From NCBI RefSeq assembly GCF_054482595.1, contig NZ_CM137008.1: a stretch of DNA of 64,000 bases. One strand, written 5' to 3'. This document shows positions 1 through 59,679 of this stretch, one piece after another; the stretch's first letter is position 1; every line of letters begins with the position of its first letter. A program made the translations under genes and the position numbers. Below the pieces are notes generated by a model that saw only the letters and a list, made by a program, of their open reading frames with translations, was not told the DNA's origin and did no database searches.

Positions 1-531
1 CTGTGTAGAGACATCATAGTTTTGATAACTATTGCTTCCCCACCCTGCTGAAATTTCCGTTCCGGGTTCATCGCGCGTCGTGATGATATTCACCACCCCG
101 CCTATTGCATCGGAACCATAAACGGCGGAGCGCGGCCCACGGATATATTCAACACGCTGGACAAGCGCAATAGGGAACTGGCTAAGGTCGGCAGAACCAC
201 TCACCCCCGCCAGATTCAGGCGTACGCCATCAATTAACACCAACACATGACTGGCATTTGTACCGCGAATAAAAATAGATGAGAGCTGACCTGAACCGCC
301 GTTTTGGGTGATATCGACGCCCGGAAGACGGCGCAGCACATCATTAACCGAGGTCGACTGCCAGCGGTCGATATCCTGACGCGTCACAACGGTGGTTGGT
401 GCAAGCACAGTGCTGCGCGGCTGTTCAAAACGGTTAGCAGTAACGACGAGAGTATCCGGGCTGGTATCCTGTGCCCAAGCGGAAAAGGCTGTGACAGAAC
501 ACGCCGTCAGCAGCGAAGCTTTTTTAATCAT
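1..531 (-). CDS. btuB: Vitamin B12 TonB-dependent outer membrane transporter BtuB, N-terminal ~177 codons (gene continues beyond window start)
   Basis: Minus-strand reading from ATG at 531..529 gives [38 protein letters not shown] (signal peptide + TonB box). Absent from ORF track because truncated by window edge. Divergent from trmA as in E. coli. Confidence 0.9.
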
Positions 532-772
532 TGTAAAGCATCCACAATAGAAGAAGGATGCCGCAGGTTTCATCAATATTACGCGATGATGAGAACCAGA
601 TGCGACGTTGGCCGGCAGGTCTTCGGGCTTGGAGGGGTATCTAAGATACTAAGAGATGATGACTTCCCACCGAATGGCAGTGTCCGCATAACGCAATCAT
701 CGCACCTTTCCTTACCGCTGCGCGTCAGCTCCAGATTCGCACTGGATTCCCTATTAACTCACAGGACCGGCA
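532..772 (-). promoter_or_regulatory. btuB 5' leader containing the cobalamin (AdoCbl) riboswitch
   Basis: Minus-strand sequence upstream of the btuB ATG reads as the btuB leader (GCCGGTCCTGTGAGTTAATAGGGAATCCAGTGCGAATCTGGAGCTGACGCGCAGCGGTAAGGAAAGGTGCGATGATTGCG...). Extent approximate. Confidence 0.8.
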
Positions 773-899
773 AGTGGATGCTACAGGTTGTAACAAGTTA
801 CTGTCCAGACGTAGCTCACAAATAGGAATTCATCAAGATCTGGACATCTGATGAGCAATCCCTACAATCGCCGCGTACTTTAATTTTTCAGGATACATC

Positions 900-2000
900 A
901 TGACCCCCGAACACCTTCCAACAGAACAGTATGAAGCGCAGTTAGCCGAAAAAGTGGTACGTTTGCAAAGTATGATGGCACCGTTTTCTGACCTGGTTCC
1001 GGAAGTGTTTCGCTCGCCGGTCAGTCATTACCGGATGCGTGCGGAGTTCCGCATCTGGCACGATGGCGATGACCTGTACCACATCATTTTCGATCAACAA
1101 ACCAAAAGCCGTATCCGGGTGGATAGCTTCCCCGCCGCCAGTGAACTCATCAACCAGTTGATGACGGCGATGATTGCGGGTGTGCGTAATAATCCCATTC
1201 TGCGCCACAAGTTGTTCCAGATTGATTACCTCACCACGCTGAGTAATCAGGCGGTGGTTTCCTTGCTGTACCATAAAAAGCTGGATGATGAGTGGCGTCA
1301 GGAAGCGGAAGCCCTGCGCGATGCACTGCGAGCACAGAATCTGAATGTGCATCTGATTGGTCGGGCAACGAAAACCAAAATCGCGCTGGATCAAGATTAC
1401 ATCGACGAACGTCTGCCGGTCGCAGGGAAAGAGATGATCTACCGTCAGGTAGAAAACAGCTTTACCCAGCCGAACGCGGCGATGAATATTCAGATGCTGG
1501 AATGGGCGCTGGACGTAACCAAAGGCTCAAAAGGCGATTTACTGGAGCTGTACTGCGGCAACGGTAACTTCTCATTAGCCCTGGCGCGCAATTTTGATCG
1601 GGTATTAGCCACCGAAATCGCCAAGCCGTCAGTCGCTGCCGCGCAATACAATATTGCCGCTAACCATATTGATAACGTACAAATTATTCGTATGGCGGCA
1701 GAAGAATTTACTCAGGCGATGAATGGCGTGCGCGAGTTTAACCGCCTGCAAGGGATCGACTTAAAGAGTTATCAGTGCGAAACCATTTTTGTCGACCCAC
1801 CGCGCAGCGGTCTGGACAGTGAAACCGAGAAAATGGTGCAGGCGTATCCACGTATTCTGTATATCTCCTGCAATCCGGAAACGTTATGCAAGAATCTGGA
1901 AACATTAAGCCAGACGCACAAGGTCGAACGCCTGGCTCTGTTTGATCAGTTCCCCTACACGCACCATATGGAGTGCGGCGTATTACTGACCGCGAAGTAA
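900..2000 (+). CDS. trmA: tRNA (uracil54-C5)-methyltransferase TrmA
   Basis: 366 aa [35 protein letters not shown]...; SAM-methyltransferase motifs; synteny btuB-trmA-yijD-fabR. Confidence 0.95.
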
Positions 2001-2005
2001 AACCC

Positions 2006-2032
2006 ATGCCGGATGCGCCAGCATCCGGCATG
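2006..2032. terminator. Bidirectional intrinsic terminator between convergent trmA and yijD
   Basis: Hairpin atgccggatgcgccagcatccggcat immediately after the trmA stop. Confidence 0.6.
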
Positions 2033-2039
2033 ATACCGA

Positions 2040-2399
2040 TTACTCAGCAACTTCCTGCTTACGGTTACGCATCTTCGCGCCAATCCAGAACACCATAATG
2101 ACGGAGAGTACTGCCGGGAAGAAGTTAGAGCCGATATCCGGATATTCCGCACGAACTACCGTGCTGTACAGCAGTACGCCGAGAATAAAACAGGCAGCTG
2201 CCAGACCCGGCAAGCCTACCGGCATGGTGCGATTAAGATAACGTTGATGCAGGCAGTAAACCGTCAGCACCAGGGAAATAATCGGGAATACAGAAAATGG
2301 CACAATGGAGCTAAACAGCGCTGCGAAAGTACCATTAATCGATAAGCCAGCAACCAACGCCAGCAGCAGCGTACCTCTATCTTGATTTGCTTGTTTCAT
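2040..2399 (-). CDS. yijD: Inner membrane protein YijD (DUF1422)
   Basis: 119 aa hydrophobic [33 protein letters not shown]...; 1-nt overlap (TAATG) with fabR stop. Confidence 0.9.
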
Positions 2400-3046
2400 T
2401 ACTCGTCCTTCACATTTCCCGGAATAATTGCGGTTTTCTCTTGTTCACGGCGATACCAGTAATAAGCCCCTTTCGAAATCATTCGCAGTTGCAGTACCAG
2501 TCGCTCTTCTAATTGCCGACGTTGTTCGACGCCGACGTCCAACGCCTCGGCACCCGCACTGAAGACAATTGTCACCATTGCTTCGGCTTGCGCTTCAGTA
2601 AACGCACGCGGCATATGGTTTTCGAGTTCCAGATAGTCCGCAAGTTCCGCAATGAAGTGCTGAATTTCACGCGCAACGGCGGCACGAAACGCAGCGGAGG
2701 TGCCGGAGCGTTCCCGCAATAATAACCGGAAGGCGTTAGGATTATTACCGATGAACTCCATAAATGTGGAGACCGAGGTGCGGATCACACTCCCGCCTTT
2801 GGCGATACGCTGACGCGCCTGGCGCATGAGTTGGCGTAGCATTAAACCGCTCTCATCAACCATGGTCAGACCCAGTTCGTCTACGTCGCGGAAATGCCGA
2901 TAAAAAGAGGTGGGAGCAATGCCCGCTTCACGCGCCACTTCACGCAAACTCAAGCTGGCGAAGCTGCGTTCAGCACTTAATTGGCTAAATGCGGCTTCCA
3001 CCAGCGAACGGCGGGTTTTTTCTTTTTGTTGCGCTCTTACGCCCAT
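2399..3046 (-). CDS. fabR: TetR-family repressor of unsaturated fatty acid biosynthesis FabR
   Basis: Conserved protein starts [29 protein letters not shown]...; track ORF extends to 3142 but the conserved start is the internal Met (coordinate 3046). Confidence 0.9.
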
Positions 3047-3152
3047 CACGATGTCTGAATCCTTGCCAAAAGTACTGCTGGCACTATACCAGAGAATGAA
3101 CATACTGGATTGCTCCAGTATTGTGAATGAACGGTAACGCAATAAAACATAT

Positions 3153-4469
3153 TTACTGCAATTCTTTGGCCGGTTCTTTTACGTACAACAACGCCAACAT
3201 CGACAGCAACGTGCCTCCACCCAGATACCACGCCGGAGCCGTCAAACTATCCAGCAACACGATGGATTGCGTAGCGAAATATTGAGCAAAACCGCCAAAG
3301 ATTGCCACACCAATGCTATAAACCAGCGCAAAACCCAATGCCCGAATCCGTTTCGGCAACAGTTCAGAGATCAACAACATCACTGGCACACCGCCAAGCG
3401 TGGTAAAGCTGACCATCACGAAAACCACCGTCAGCAACATGCCAGGGCTTGGGTAATTCACCAACAGCCAGAATGACGGCCAGCTACAGATCAGCACCAT
3501 CACACGGGAGATTAAAATCAGCTTTTTACGCCCGACCGAATCGCACAACATCCCCACAAGCAGCGCACCCACAAACGTAATAACGCCCGCCAGTAACATC
3601 GCTGCATGAGAATAATGTTGAGGCATCGCCAGATACTTCGCCGCCCAGGTGCCGTAATAAAAGAGGGAGATATAGGTTGCGACCGTGCTACCAATAGCGA
3701 GTAAAACGCCATTAACGATAGTCGCCTTATGTTGCAGGAGCAGAGAAAACGCGCTTTCGCTGGTAGCAGCTTTTTTATTGCGCACAGGCTCAGGTACGTC
3801 ATTTTCCAGACTCAAACGCAACCAACAGCCGACAGGCGCTAATAACACGCCAATAAAAAACGGCACACGCCAGCCCCATTCAGCCATGACGGTTTCTGAA
3901 CCGGTCGCAAAGGGCAGCCATGCACTTAAACCTAAAGCGACAACACCTCCAAAAGTTGTTGCCAGGCCTTGAGTCGCCAGTGACCAACTGCTGTAAAAAC
4001 CGCGACGATTTGCCGGAGCTGACTCCACCAGTAGCGACATTGAAGCCCCAACTTCACCGCCTGCTGCAACACCCTGAATCAAACGAGCAAGTACCAGAGT
4101 TGCCGTTCCCCAATAGCCCGCCGTCGCATACGTCGGCGCAATGCCAATCATCAACGTGCCGAGGCTCATCAGGGCAATAGTGAACACCATCGCGGGTTTG
4201 CGTCCGAAACGATCGGCCCAGGCCCCGACGATAATTCCACCAAGCGGGCGCATAAAAAAACTCACGCCAAACGTTGCAAATGCCAGTAACAGCGCGACAT
4301 TGTGATCAGCGCTGGGTGGGAAGAAAAGTGTACTGATATAGACCACAAAAAAGTTGTAAACGCCAAAATCAAACAATTCGAGCGCATTGCCAAACGCCGA
4401 GGCAAAAATCACCCGCCTGCCGCTGGGCTTTTTCTTCACACTCACGGTTTCATTTACGATCGCCGTCAT
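3153..4469 (-). CDS. MFS transporter, metabolite:H+ symporter (MHS) family-like; substrate unknown
   Basis: 438 aa, many predicted TM segments, MFS signature region GxxxDRFGRK ([12 protein letters not shown]). Lies in a segment I do not recall between fabR and sthA in K-12. Confidence 0.8.
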
Positions 4470-4511
4470 TCCATGTTCCTTGCCAAAAAGTGTTGTTGTG
4501 TGTTGTTTTAT

Positions 4512-5678
4512 TTATTGCAGCCAGGCTTCTACCAGTGCGCCCCAGTAGCTGCTTGCCGGGACCAGACTTGCATCGTTGAAGTCGTAACCCGGGTTATGCA
4601 CCATGCAGGAACCTTCCCCGACATCGCCATTACCGAATAACAGGAAACCGCCTTTGGGTTGGGCTTCCAGCATGAAAGAGAAATCTTCACTGCCCATCAG
4701 AGGCTTGATGCCAAACTCGGCCAGCTCTTCACCAAACGTTTTACACGCCACCTGCCAGGCGAAGCGCGCCATCTCCTCGTCATTCACTAATACCGGTGTA
4801 CCGTTAACATGCGTAACCTCAGCCGTAGCACCAAAGCTGGCAGCCAGGGCTTGTGCCAGAGCAGGAATACGGGTCAGAAGAAGTTGTCGGGTATCGCGGC
4901 TAAGAGAGCGGACGCTGATTTTCATCTCAGCACTGTCAGGAATGACGTTAGCCGCCTCACCCGCAACAATGCTGCCGACGGTAATTACCGCCGCTTCCAG
5001 CGGATCGACATTGCGCGACACAATGCTTTGTAATGCGGTGGTGATATGTGCCGCGACCAGCACCGGATCGATGGCTTTGTGCGGGATCGCACCGTGTCCG
5101 CCACAACCACGAACTGTAATATGGAACTGATCCATTGACGCCATCAGTGCCCCTGGCTGGAAATAAAACTTACCCACCGGCAGACCGGGCATGTTATGCA
5201 TGCCGAAAATGACATCGCAGGGGAAATGATCAAAAAGCCCCTCTTTAACCATGATCTCACCGCCATTAATCATCTCTTCCGCAGGCTGGAAGATAAGACG
5301 TAACGTGCCGTTAAAACGGCGGGTTTCGGCAAAATAACGCGCGGCCCCCAGCAGTATGGTGGTATGCCCGTCATGCCCGCAGGCGTGCATTAAACCAGGA
5401 TGTTTACTGGCCCAGAGCTTGCCACTATTTTCATAAATCGGCAGCGCATCCATATCCGCCCGCAGGCCAATACTTTTCTCTCCGTCGCCCACTTTTAACG
5501 TGGCCACTATCCCCGTCGTCGCCAGTCCTTGCTCTACTTCATAGCCCCACTGACGCAGCTTTTCCGCAACCAAAGCACTGGTTTTAAATTCTTGTAATCC
5601 CAGCTCCGGGTTTTCGTGGATCTGATGGCGGATCTCACGCAGTTCTTCCTCAAACCCTCGAATATAGTGTTCGATCAT
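4512..5678 (-). CDS. M20D-family amidohydrolase (hippurate hydrolase / N-acyl-amino acid amidohydrolase-like)
   Basis: 388 aa with HACGHDGH metal-binding motif typical of peptidase M20D (AbgA/HipO/ILR1 type); co-oriented with the MFS gene, 42 bp apart. Confidence 0.8.
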   Translation of the reverse strand: MIEHYIRGFEEELREIRHQIHENPELGLQEFKTSALVAEKLRQWGYEVEQGLATTGIVATLKVGDGEKSIGLRADMDALPIYENSGKLWASKHPGLMHACGHDGHTTILLGAARYFAETRRFNGTLRLIFQPAEEMINGGEIMVKEGLFDHFPCDVIFGMHNMPGLPVGKFYFQPGALMASMDQFHITVRGCGGHGAIPHKAIDPVLVAAHITTALQSIVSRNVDPLEAAVITVGSIVAGEAANVIPDSAEMKISVRSLSRDTRQLLLTRIPALAQALAASFGATAEVTHVNGTPVLVNDEEMARFAWQVACKTFGEELAEFGIKPLMGSEDFSFMLEAQPKGGFLLFGNGDVGEGSCMVHNPGYDFNDASLVPASSYWGALVEAWLQ

Positions 5679-6007
5679 CGGCTATTCCTTTATTCACTTA
5701 TAAACAGGCTAATTAACGGATTTTATTGATGGTATAAATACAAATAACCCATCAATATAAAATATTTATATGTTTGTTTTATAAGAATATTTCATAAAGA
5801 CAATAACAAAAAAGCACGCTTCGGCAAGATAAAACTATCAGCCATAATAAAAAGCGATTAATAGTGAATAAATGGGTTAAGAAGGAGGCAGACAAAGCAA
5901 AGGCCGCTCACGCTATAGCCAGATTAATGACGGGGATCAATTGGCTTACCCGCGATAAAATGTTACCATTCTGTTGCTTTTATGTATAAGAACAGGTAAG
6001 CCCTACC

Positions 6008-7408
6008 ATGCCACATTCCTACGATTACGATGCCATAGTAATAGGTTCCGGCCCCGGCGGCGAAGGCGCTGCAATGGGCCTGGTTAAGCAAGGTGCGCGC
6101 GTCGCAGTTATCGAGCGTTATCAAAATGTTGGCGGCGGTTGCACCCACTGGGGCACCATCCCGTCGAAAGCTCTCCGTCACGCCGTCAGCCGCATTATAG
6201 AATTCAATCAAAACCCACTATACAGCGACCATTCCCGACTGCTCCGCTCTTCTTTTGCCGATATCCTTAACCATGCCGATAACGTGATTAATCAACAAAC
6301 GCGCATGCGTCAGGGATTTTACGAACGTAATCACTGTGAAATATTGCAGGGGAACGCTCGCTTTGTTGACGAGCATACGTTGGCGCTGGATTGCCCGGAC
6401 GGCAGCGTTGAAACACTAACCGCTGAAAAATTTGTTATTGCCTGCGGCTCTCGTCCATATCATCCAACAGATGTTGATTTCACCCATCCACGCATTTACG
6501 ACAGCGACTCAATTCTCAGCATGCACCACGAACCGCGCCATGTACTTATCTATGGTGCTGGAGTGATCGGCTGTGAATATGCGTCGATCTTCCGCGGTAT
6601 GGATGTAAAAGTGGATCTGATCAACACCCGCGATCGCCTGCTGGCATTTCTCGATCAAGAGATGTCAGATTCTCTCTCCTATCACTTCTGGAACAGTGGC
6701 GTAGTGATTCGTCACAACGAAGAGTACGAGAAGATCGAAGGCTGTGACGACGGTGTAATCATGCATCTGAAGTCGGGTAAAAAACTGAAAGCCGACTGTC
6801 TGCTCTATGCCAACGGCCGCACCGGTAATACCGATTCGCTGGCATTACAGAACATTGGGCTGGAAACTGACAGTCGCGGACAGCTGAAGGTCAACAGCAT
6901 GTATCAGACCGCACAGCCGCACGTTTACGCGGTGGGCGACGTGATTGGTTATCCGAGCCTGGCATCAGCGGCCTATGACCAGGGGCGCATTGCCGCGCAG
7001 GCGCTGGTAAAAGGCGAAGCCACCGCGCATCTGATTGAAGATATCCCTACCGGCATTTACACCATCCCGGAAATCAGCTCTGTGGGCAAAACCGAACAGC
7101 AGCTGACCGCGATGAAAGTGCCATATGAAGTGGGCCGCGCCCAGTTTAAACATCTGGCACGCGCACAAATCGTTGGCATGAACGTGGGCACGCTGAAAAT
7201 TTTGTTCCATCGGGAAACGAAAGAGATTCTGGGCATTCACTGCTTTGGCGAGCGCGCTGCCGAAATTATTCATATCGGTCAGGCGATTATGGAACAGAAA
7301 GGTGGCGGCAACACTATTGAGTACTTCGTCAACACCACCTTTAACTACCCGACGATGGCGGAAGCCTATCGGGTAGCTGCGTTAAACGGTTTAAACCGCC
7401 TGTTTTAA
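6008..7408 (+). CDS. sthA: Soluble pyridine nucleotide transhydrogenase SthA (UdhA)
   Basis: 466 aa [38 protein letters not shown]...; FAD/NAD dinucleotide-binding motifs. Confidence 0.95.
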
Positions 7409-51130: not shown

Positions 51131-51616
51131 ATGAAATACGATACTTCCGAGCTTTGTGACATCTATCAAGAAGATGTTAACGTCGTGGAACCGCTGTTCT
51201 CCAACTTTGGCGGACGGGCGTCGTTTGGCGGACAAATAATCACGGTAAAATGTTTCGAGGACAACGGGTTGCTGTACGATCTGCTCGAACAGAATGGCCG
51301 TGGTCGTGTTCTTGTCGTCGATGGCGGTGGTTCTGTTCGTCGCGCACTGGTCGATGCTGAACTGGCGCGTCTGGCAGTACAAAATGAATGGGAAGGTCTG
51401 GTCATTTACGGCGCGGTGCGTCAGGTAGATGACCTGGAAGAGTTGGATATCGGCATCCAGGCGATGGCGGCAATTCCGGTTGGTGCCGCTGGCGAAGGCA
51501 TTGGCGAAAGCGATGTCCGCGTCAATTTTGGCGGTGTTACCTTCTTCTCCGGCGACCATCTTTATGCCGACAATACCGGGATTATTCTTTCAGAAGATCC
51601 GCTGGATATTGAATAA
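51131..51616 (+). CDS. rraA: Regulator of RNase E activity RraA (MenG)
   Basis: 161 aa [46 protein letters not shown]... Confidence 0.95.
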
Positions 51617-51632
51617 GTATCTGCCATGCGTT

Positions 51633-51660
51633 AAAAGGGGAATTAAATTCCCCTTTTTTA
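51633..51660 (+). terminator. rraA intrinsic terminator
   Basis: Hairpin aaaaggggaattaaattcccctttttta. Confidence 0.65.
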
Positions 51661-51663
51661 TAC

Positions 51664-52350
51664 ATGGACGCATTCATGCAGAATATTATTCTTTTATTTA
51701 TATATTTATTACTTATAGCCGTTAACCATTTCCGCTACAAATTTCTTTTATCTGGCAACGCGGGTGAAATGATTTTATATTTTGCTAACGTATTTTTTAA
51801 CCCACTTGCCTTATCATTTATTATCGCCACAATCATCTGTATAACGATAAAAAAAAGAAGCAGCCGCAGCTTTATTCGCGGCACTTGTTGGTTAATGGGA
51901 TTATTTCTTATCTATAGCAGCTATACGGTGTGGGAACGACACAGCATATGGGATTATACTTTCCCGGAGCCAGGTATCACCGTCACGGTTCCGAGCAAAC
52001 AGTGGGTTGCCAATATAGTAAAACAAGGACCAACCCTGGTGACCCGGGATGCCCATGCTATTTTAGCTATTGTTGCCTTCTCACAAAATGAACTCGGTGT
52101 GCATTCAATCGAGGAACTTACCGCGATTCAAAACGGAACTGCAGAAATGCATGTTTGTGATGTTCAGGGATTTGCCTGCGCTTATCAGGAAGGAGTGCAA
52201 ACAATGAGTGATGGCAAAGTAAGACATGCTATTTTCATGACTCTACTGGATAACACTAATTTGATACAACTGGTCGCAGCTATCGACCCAGATTATTTGG
52301 ACGAATATCAAGAAGAAGTAATGAAAATGATGCTTTCTGCTCGTCAATGA
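51664..52350 (+). CDS. Hypothetical membrane-anchored protein, paralog A (start may be internal Met at 51676)
   Basis: 228 aa ORF, AT-rich, 2-3 predicted N-terminal TM helices then ~150 aa domain; about 30% identical to the adjacent downstream ORF with shared motifs (SFxRGxCW, ISVTVP, HxC...F(A/T)CxYQ, MLSA). Confidence 0.6.
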   Translation: MDAFMQNIILLFIYLLLIAVNHFRYKFLLSGNAGEMILYFANVFFNPLALSFIIATIICITIKKRSSRSFIRGTCWLMGLFLIYSSYTVWERHSIWDYTFPEPGITVTVPSKQWVANIVKQGPTLVTRDAHAILAIVAFSQNELGVHSIEELTAIQNGTAEMHVCDVQGFACAYQEGVQTMSDGKVRHAIFMTLLDNTNLIQLVAAIDPDYLDEYQEEVMKMMLSARQ

Positions 52351-59027: not shown

Positions 59028-59238
59028 AGGGCACCTCTGTATATTCGCCTCTCTGTCGATTACGACTTAAGAATAATGCGCCGTTAAGGGAAGAACAAAC
59101 AAGTAATGATCTTATGGATTACCATTTTTTTTGATATTGCTTAAGGTGAAGAGTTCAGAAGGATTTTCCGGGTATTGTCATTTGCATCGTGGAAATAACA
59201 ATCCCGGAAAAAAATAGCAGTAAGAGATATATTAAAGG

Positions 59239-59679
59239 TTAATTACTTGATTTATTGTCGGCTTTATACTTCACATCCTGAGTATCTTTACCATATTTAT
59301 TTTCGCCTTGTGTGCCAACAAACGCACCAAGATCGATAAGCATCATCACCAGAATCAACGTCGGGACAAAACGCCCCACCGCCCATTGCCAGACACCCGG
59401 TAAAATCGCCCAGTTACCCGCCAGCAGCATCCACGCCACAATCATCAGAAATGCCCATGCGCCGGAACGCCCGCGATCATGCAAGCGCTTAACGGTTACT
59501 GCCGCTGTTGGCCAAAGCAAGCACACAAGGCAAAACGCCGCGGTCTGAATATCGAGTAAATTTTTACCCGCCAGTGAGAAAAGCACCAGCATGCCTGCGA
59601 ACCACAGGCCTATCCAAATCCAGAAATCACGGCGTCCAATACGCCCTTTAAATGAGAATAACCATTGCTGTATGGTCAT
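59239..59679 (-). CDS. yiiR: DUF805-family inner membrane protein YiiR
   Basis: 146 aa MTIQQWLFSFKGRIGRRDFWIWIGLWFAGMLVLFSLAG... Confidence 0.9.
   Translation of the reverse strand: MTIQQWLFSFKGRIGRRDFWIWIGLWFAGMLVLFSLAGKNLLDIQTAAFCLVCLLWPTAAVTVKRLHDRGRSGAWAFLMIVAWMLLAGNWAILPGVWQWAVGRFVPTLILVMMLIDLGAFVGTQGENKYGKDTQDVKYKADNKSSN

Follow-up and report, generated by a model that had tools for sequence, protein, structure and literature searches.

A probable divergent control region between sthA and an old aminoacylase-transporter operon of Escherichia that appears lost by deletion in K-12

The DNA analysed, called the window below, is a stretch of 64,000 nucleotides from E. coli, in which 729 bp around the intergenic segment studied here are 100% identical to the O157:H7 strain TR01. 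The gene order is trmA (900-2000, plus strand), yijD (2040-2399, minus), fabR (2399-3049, minus), a gene for a transporter of the MFS metabolite:H+ symporter type (3153-4469, minus; annotated elsewhere as 'putative citrate permease', c4925 or ECs4893), a gene for an M20 aminoacylase (4512-5678, minus; 'putative hippuricase', c4924 or ECs4892) and sthA (6008-7408, plus), which encodes the soluble pyridine nucleotide transhydrogenase (NF003585, 806 bits, and annotation), with oxyR and argH 3' of it. The segment between the aminoacylase start and the sthA start covers 5679-6007 (329 bp). The aminoacylase and the transporter are genes 1 and 2 of an operon, hereafter the cassette, and are separated by a 42-bp gap in which no minus-strand promoter- or terminator-like site was found. 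The cassette part of the window is 100% identical to XH990, 98.8% to typical O157:H7 and about 95.7% to B2 strains (CFT073, Nissle 1917, ZH193).

The aminoacylase scored 354.2 bits with TIGR01891 (cut-off 153.75). It stayed below the cut-offs of both specific equivalogs, CpsA and DoeB2, and no substrate-specific model passed. Its closest solved structures are YxeP, an ILR1-like IAA-amino-acid hydrolase and an N-acyl-glutamine aminoacylase. Aminoacylase and transporter genes are adjacent in nine of the distant loci that were fetched, including Burkholderia, Paraburkholderia and Pseudomonas. Judged from these sequence comparisons, the function of the operon is best described as the uptake and deacylation of an N-acyl amino acid. 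Transcription that leaves the operon may not end there: the cassette lies on the same strand as fabR-yijD with only weak terminator-like hairpins between them, so that read-through into fabR is conceivable. A promoter-like fabR site (TTCACA-17-TATGTT, 3099-3127, minus strand) is located downstream of the transporter stop codon, in a block conserved in Salmonella.

The intergenic segment consists of two parts. Positions 5679-5888 (210 bp, the cassette side, minus strand), delimited by composition and by comparison with K-12, have a G+C content of 27.6%, compared to 44.5% for 5889-6007 (119 bp) and 51.9% for the window, and 0.12% of all 210-bp intervals in the 64 kb are equally AT-rich. With 72% A+T over 210 bp and 29 TpA steps, this part counts as an AT-rich tract of at least 100 bp. 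Compared base by base with a K-12-type genome (L001), the window showed no similarity before 5889, and 115 of 119 bases were identical from 5889 to the sthA ATG, on the plus-strand side. A sequence-only reading of this DNA had described about 200 bp of AT-rich sequence, followed by sthA-upstream-like sequence and abutting the sthA promoter. This was accurate: the AT-rich part adjoins the conserved sthA promoter region, and the string quoted in that reading corresponds to 5733-5807. The alignment to K-12 which it proposed for placing the junction to the base puts it at 5888/5889, and the AT-rich 210 bp are indeed not native to K-12, having no counterpart in the K-12-type spacer.

Two other observations concern composition and sequence in this area. 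Four further AT-rich stretches of the window (39999-40870, 42401-42747, 51570-51897 and 59058-59322) reach a minimum G+C of 26-30% over 210 bp, and are comparable to or longer than 5679-5888. Just inside the AT-rich block, at 5874-5877, the window reads GGGT where 6 of the 7 other Escherichia sequences aligned have AAAA and E. whittamii has GGAT, a clustered difference of four bases.

The fabR-sthA spacer of K-12 is 330 bp long and is made up of 138 bp identical to 3050-3187, 73 bp absent from the window, and 119 bp equivalent to 5889-6007. The segment missing from K-12-type genomes is 3188-5888 (2701 bp), and 73 bp of unrelated sequence, called the filler below, are found instead (L001:1428-1500). 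What K-12 retains at 3153-3187 (minus strand) is a remnant of the transporter gene, namely its last 10 codons, the stop codon and 2 nt, unchanged. The transporter tail matches the C-termini of distant homologues both in sequence pattern and in end position, the homologues compared being those encoded beside aminoacylase homologues in Burkholderia, Paraburkholderia, Pseudomonas and others. By this alignment, 3153-3187 is real coding sequence.

Five other Escherichia species have the cassette in the same position (E. albertii, E. fergusonii, E. ruysiae, E. whittamii and Escherichia sp. E2593), and the sthA-aminoacylase spacer is 329 bp long, with no indels, in all 8 Escherichia sequences aligned. 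Identity of the cassette to the five species is 88-96%, against 86-98% for the flanking genes. At third codon positions, identity to the window ranges over 71-89% for the transporter and 77-91% for the aminoacylase, and over 75-94% for sthA and 83-96% for fabR in the flanks. Since the cassette is at least as divergent as its flanks and occupies the same site, the gene pair predates the split of the Escherichia species. In Salmonella, the sole outgroup from outside Escherichia, fabR and sthA are adjacent with a spacer of about 200 bp, and homology to the window stops near 3129 and restarts near 5906. No cassette, no transporter remnant, no copy of the 73 bp and no similarity to the AT-rich block was found in the Salmonella intergenic region. 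Two members of the FabR cluster (P0029 and P0030) were rejected as outgroups, being E. coli-like contigs and not other genera.

Because K-12 keeps the 3' remnant of the transporter gene and the cassette is present at this site across the genus, we read the K-12 state as a deletion scar. The oldest event would then be that an Escherichia ancestor gained roughly 3130-5905 by insertion; the operon would have been acquired before the Escherichia species diverged, and inherited at this site thereafter. Later, one deletion allele would have removed 3188-5888, leaving 35 nt of the transporter 3' end and the 73-bp filler. Position 5888/5889 is a deletion endpoint; the comparison with Salmonella puts the older insertion boundary no more than about 17 bp away.

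The sequence-only reading had spoken of an 'inserted operon' and an 'insertion junction'. The corresponding scenario is that the cassette was recently inserted into a K-12-like fabR-sthA spacer, with 5888/5889 as the insertion junction, and that the AT-rich DNA is foreign and silenced by H-NS. The absence of the segment from K-12 would fit, and so would the proximity of the old insertion boundary to 5889. Moreover, the nearest relatives of the aminoacylase outside Escherichia are, among the matches listed, from Betaproteobacteria with at most 62% identity, so that the pair did arrive horizontally at some point. However, a recent event does not agree with a cassette present genus-wide at one site with species-level divergence, nor with the 35 nt of transporter coding sequence kept by K-12. 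No flanking repeats were found at the cassette ends, which have only 7-mers in common, and there is no integrase, transposase or tRNA gene at the cassette, whose two open reading frames are both metabolic. Its genes have a host-like G+C content (51.7% and 53.6%, for 51.9% in the window), and only the 210-bp promoter region is AT-rich. A recent island of the O-island type was rejected for the lack of mobility hallmarks, the host-like composition of the genes and a divergence at least equal to that of the flanks. We consider recent insertion improbable; with a cassette found genus-wide and a transporter remnant in K-12, the direction given by the sequence-only reading has to be reversed. In our favoured interpretation, which we hold to be likely, the segment is an ordinary divergent control region between sthA and an ancient aminoacylase-transporter operon lost by deletion in the K-12 lineage.

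Among 5426 complete E. coli genomes, 1507 carry the cassette and 3918 (about 72%) the K-12-type spacer, scored as at least 80% cover of the K-12 intergenic region together with the 73-bp filler, present once at 90% identity or more. The filler was found once in exactly the 3918 cassette-less genomes, while a search at E <= 10 returned it from no other genome; this points to one deletion event and one scar. No source for it was detected in E. coli genomes (blastn, E <= 10), in plasmids (E <= 1), in Rfam or in Salmonella. Local alignment of the filler with both strands of the cassette gave a best match at 5701-5754 (63% identity, P about 0.06 against shuffles), comparison with the colinear transporter 3' end gave P about 0.8, and an open reading frame through the filler is at chance level.

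The cassette is present in phylogroups B2 and E, and is apparently absent from strains that we take to belong to phylogroups D and F (table column order as assumed). Such a distribution requires that recombination spread the one scar allele. Between cassette copies, divergence reaches 4.3% within E. coli and ranges over 4-12% from one species to another. Two E. coli-like metagenome contigs (L100 and L101) have a trmA-yijD-fabR region (equivalent to 80-3049) only about 80% identical to the window, followed by 98-99% identity from just upstream of the fabR start onward. This divergent flank carries the cassette allele in L101 and the K-12 scar allele in L100. The shift in identity indicates that a segment was imported, with its recombination breakpoint close to the 5' end of fabR.

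Both cassette genes are intact in 1506 of the 1507 carrier genomes. In the remaining one, M22546, the aminoacylase query matched two separate places, with the best match starting from query base 362, and the gene may be interrupted there (window 4512-4873). The sthA-aminoacylase locus was also seen on two records typed as plasmid, including NZ_CP170376.1 (169 kb); these are probably assembly fragments or mislabelled replicons.

On the sthA side, 5889-6007 would represent the ancestral upstream region of sthA, and 5679-5888 would belong to the minus-strand two-gene operon. The ArcA operator of sthA has been reported as ATGTTACCATTCTGTTGCTTTTATGTATAAGA, spanning -36 to -5 relative to the start site (Park et al., PMC3798270 supplement), and sthA is derepressed 18-fold in an arcA mutant (PMC3798270). 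This string, which comprises three direct repeats, is unchanged in the window at 5960-5991 (plus strand), and its position would place the sthA transcription start near 5996. A promoter scan gave a putative -35 box, TTACCA (5963-5968), and a putative -10 box, TATAAG (5985-5990), on the same strand and overlapping the operator. Positions 5927-6007 are invariant in 7 of the 8 Escherichia sequences, and the eighth, E. coli L084, differs at one base, 5971. The sthA (udhA) promoter of K-12 has the same core, with 115 of 119 bases identical and an unchanged ArcA site, but differs upstream of -108 from the transcription start, where the two alleles are unrelated sequence. As some 70 bp separate the junction from the start of the operator and predicted core promoter, the allele polymorphism leaves them intact. 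The sole FNR-like match (5927-5940, 2 mismatches) falls in the part shared with K-12 and not in the AT-rich block. In strain IAL7254, similarity to the region upstream of sthA begins about 72 bp ahead of the ATG (near 5936) and abuts an IS481-family transposase, as if an IS had inserted close upstream of the sthA promoter.

On the operon side, 5679-5888 would hold the operon promoter, a ribosome-binding site and sites for regulators that bind AT-rich DNA. The sequence-only reading presumed that the promoter of the operon is in this segment, and we agree: the 210 bp are the sole non-coding DNA upstream of it and the sole candidate promoter region. They most likely include the promoter of the operon, any position for it within them being a prediction. 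A Shine-Dalgarno-like AAGGA lies at 5686-5690 (minus strand), 7 nt before the aminoacylase ATG, and is invariant in the alignment. An AT-rich motif, a putative TosR site, occupies 5757-5785 (minus strand), 78 nt ahead of the aminoacylase start codon. For CFT073, PMC5956150 (Table S2) lists this motif as CTTATAAAACAAATATATAAATATTTTAT, 78 bp upstream of c4924; the window (minus strand, 5785-5757) differs from that string by one base. An inverted repeat, ATTGATGG-N16-CCATCAAT, was read from the sequence at 5725-5756. It brackets a promoter-like pair found by the promoter scan, GTTATT (5748-5743) and TAAAAT (5725-5720), and its core, ATTGAT...ATCAAT, is invariant in the 8 Escherichia sequences. 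This repeat is a candidate operator only.

Other motif searches gave little. A consensus promoter scan of the minus strand of the AT-rich block returned no match, and the best hexamer pair on that strand scored 10.4, versus a mean of 11.0 (SD 1.4) for shuffled sequences of the same composition. Consensus sites for CRP or sigma-54, which might have accounted for the induction described below, did not turn up in the block. A match to the ArcA core GTTAATTA at 5709-5717 and H-NS motif matches with 1-2 mismatches were set aside, both being as expected in DNA of such composition.

Promoter scores at chance level could mean that the AT-rich block is a non-functional spacer, and that the operon is driven from elsewhere or effectively dead. 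Yet no other non-coding DNA precedes the operon, and the block has kept 88-95% identity across the five species with no indels, compared to 77-91% at third codon positions of the aminoacylase. Being more conserved than these neighbouring positions (about 2-fold slower evolution) and free of indels, the block appears to be under selective constraint. The fixed spacer length of 329 bp, the intactness of both genes in all carriers but one, and transcripts that respond to conditions (see below) likewise speak against a dead spacer, which we regard as extremely improbable.

Alternatively, the block may be transcribed as a long 5' leader, whose RNA structure hides the ribosome-binding site and controls translation in the manner of a riboswitch or attenuator. 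The minus strand of 5679-5888 does fold well, with -39.9 kcal/mol (z = -2.97; 2 of 200 shuffles were as good), and its long-range helix, between 5864-5876 and 5687-5698, adjoins the Shine-Dalgarno sequence. However, compensatory changes were found at 0 of the 63 predicted pairs and the covariation term was unfavourable. In E. ruysiae the long-range helix is disrupted at four positions, and no Rfam match was obtained at E <= 1. Control by such a leader is very improbable in our judgement.

Published expression data bear on both operon genes. In O157:H7 Sakai grown in glucose minimal medium, ECs4893 ('putative citrate permease') has a low exponential-phase expression index, and it rises by log2 2.09 (about 4-fold) at the transition to stationary phase (PMC2241611). 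We assigned ECs4893 to the transporter from its name and from how argC, argB, argH and murI are numbered in those PMC2241611 tables. In CFT073, c4924 ('putative hippuricase') is raised by log2 6.6 (about 100-fold) on TosR overproduction (PMC5956150). It is among the five most strongly raised genes, and rises together with the auf, yqi and yfc fimbrial operons (PMC5956150). TosR is a regulator of the PapB family, for which the authors propose binding to AT-rich DNA and antagonism of H-NS and Lrp (PMC5956150). Expression of the operon would then be low in exponential growth, and would go up at stationary-phase entry or upon TosR overproduction.

These data are compatible with repression of the operon by nucleoid proteins, itself a presumption, and silencing by H-NS, as the sequence-only reading suggested from the AT-rich composition, is a reasonable hypothesis. 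The datasets consulted, among them a ChIP study of H-NS and Pch in EHEC, contain no H-NS entry for this locus from a strain that carries the cassette. A table in PMC4720273 flags only sthA and fabR, as H-NS-unbound, the strain behind these flags not being established. The AT-rich promoter and the TosR response would suit recent insertion with silencing as well, but the induction of the transporter transcript at stationary-phase entry, in an ordinary minimal medium, counts against it. Classical silenced islands differ from the present case, where the operon genes have a normal G+C content (52-54%), the locus is ancient, and expression is inducible in ordinary medium.

A more elaborate proposal can be made, which we put forward as a speculation and think rather unlikely as a whole. 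The AT-rich block would be a genus-old regulatory module, in which the invariant ATTGAT-N20-ATCAAT would serve as an operator, allowing nucleoid proteins and a specific regulator from another locus to keep an operon for scavenging N-acyl amino acids (hippurate-like) off. The K-12-type deletion with its 73-bp filler would then be a selectively favoured loss, spread across phylogroups by recombination.

That the gene pair is absent from K-12 and present in UPEC and O157 is already on record, and the feature is ordinary and largely documented. ECs4892-ECs4893 are listed as O157-specific ORFs (PMC2241611). In CFT073, c4924-c4926 form colinear gene set no. 14, in which c4926 is yijC/fabR (PMC2831201). 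Besides CFT073, c4924 and c4925 were scored present in seven strains, which by the assumed column order are four B2 strains, both O157 strains and Shigella dysenteriae (PMC2831201). A literature search for fabR, sthA and the aminoacylase together returned nothing, and experimental work on the substrate or promoter of the operon was not found. No new kind of element is involved, and the importance is modest. The analysis does correct a direction centred on K-12, in that the apparent insertion is an ancestral Escherichia operon lost by K-12 and about 72% of sequenced E. coli. It further indicates that the cassette/scar polymorphism touches neither the published ArcA site of sthA nor the promoter deduced from that site. 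Finally, it provides a defined 210-bp fragment for studying the regulation of a hippuricase-like operon retained in B2 uropathogens and O157.

Three comparisons with known systems can be drawn. First, the 'O157-specific' pair ECs4892-ECs4893 and the 'UPEC-associated' pair c4924-c4925 are the same locus as the one described here. The papers that list them treat them as strain-specific extra genes, whereas we find the ancestral Escherichia state, K-12 being a deletion derivative that keeps a remnant. Second, the promoters repressed by H-NS and Lrp and relieved by PapB or TosR (pap, tos, auf, yqi, yfc) resemble the present one in their AT-rich upstream DNA, low basal expression and strong induction by TosR overproduction, in the same gene set as cryptic fimbrial operons. 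The likeness comes from composition and expression, and in contrast to those systems the genes here are not AT-rich and the locus was not recently acquired. Third, abgAB-abgT, for p-aminobenzoyl-glutamate, and other aminoacylase-transporter pairs also combine an M20 amidohydrolase with an uptake transporter in a small scavenging operon, and AbgB-type proteins are detectable relatives of the aminoacylase (3io1, E = 1e-34; COG1473). The abgAB-abgT system differs in its transporter, which is of the AbgT type there and an MFS metabolite:H+ symporter here, and in the adjacent LysR-type regulator, which has no equivalent beside the present operon.
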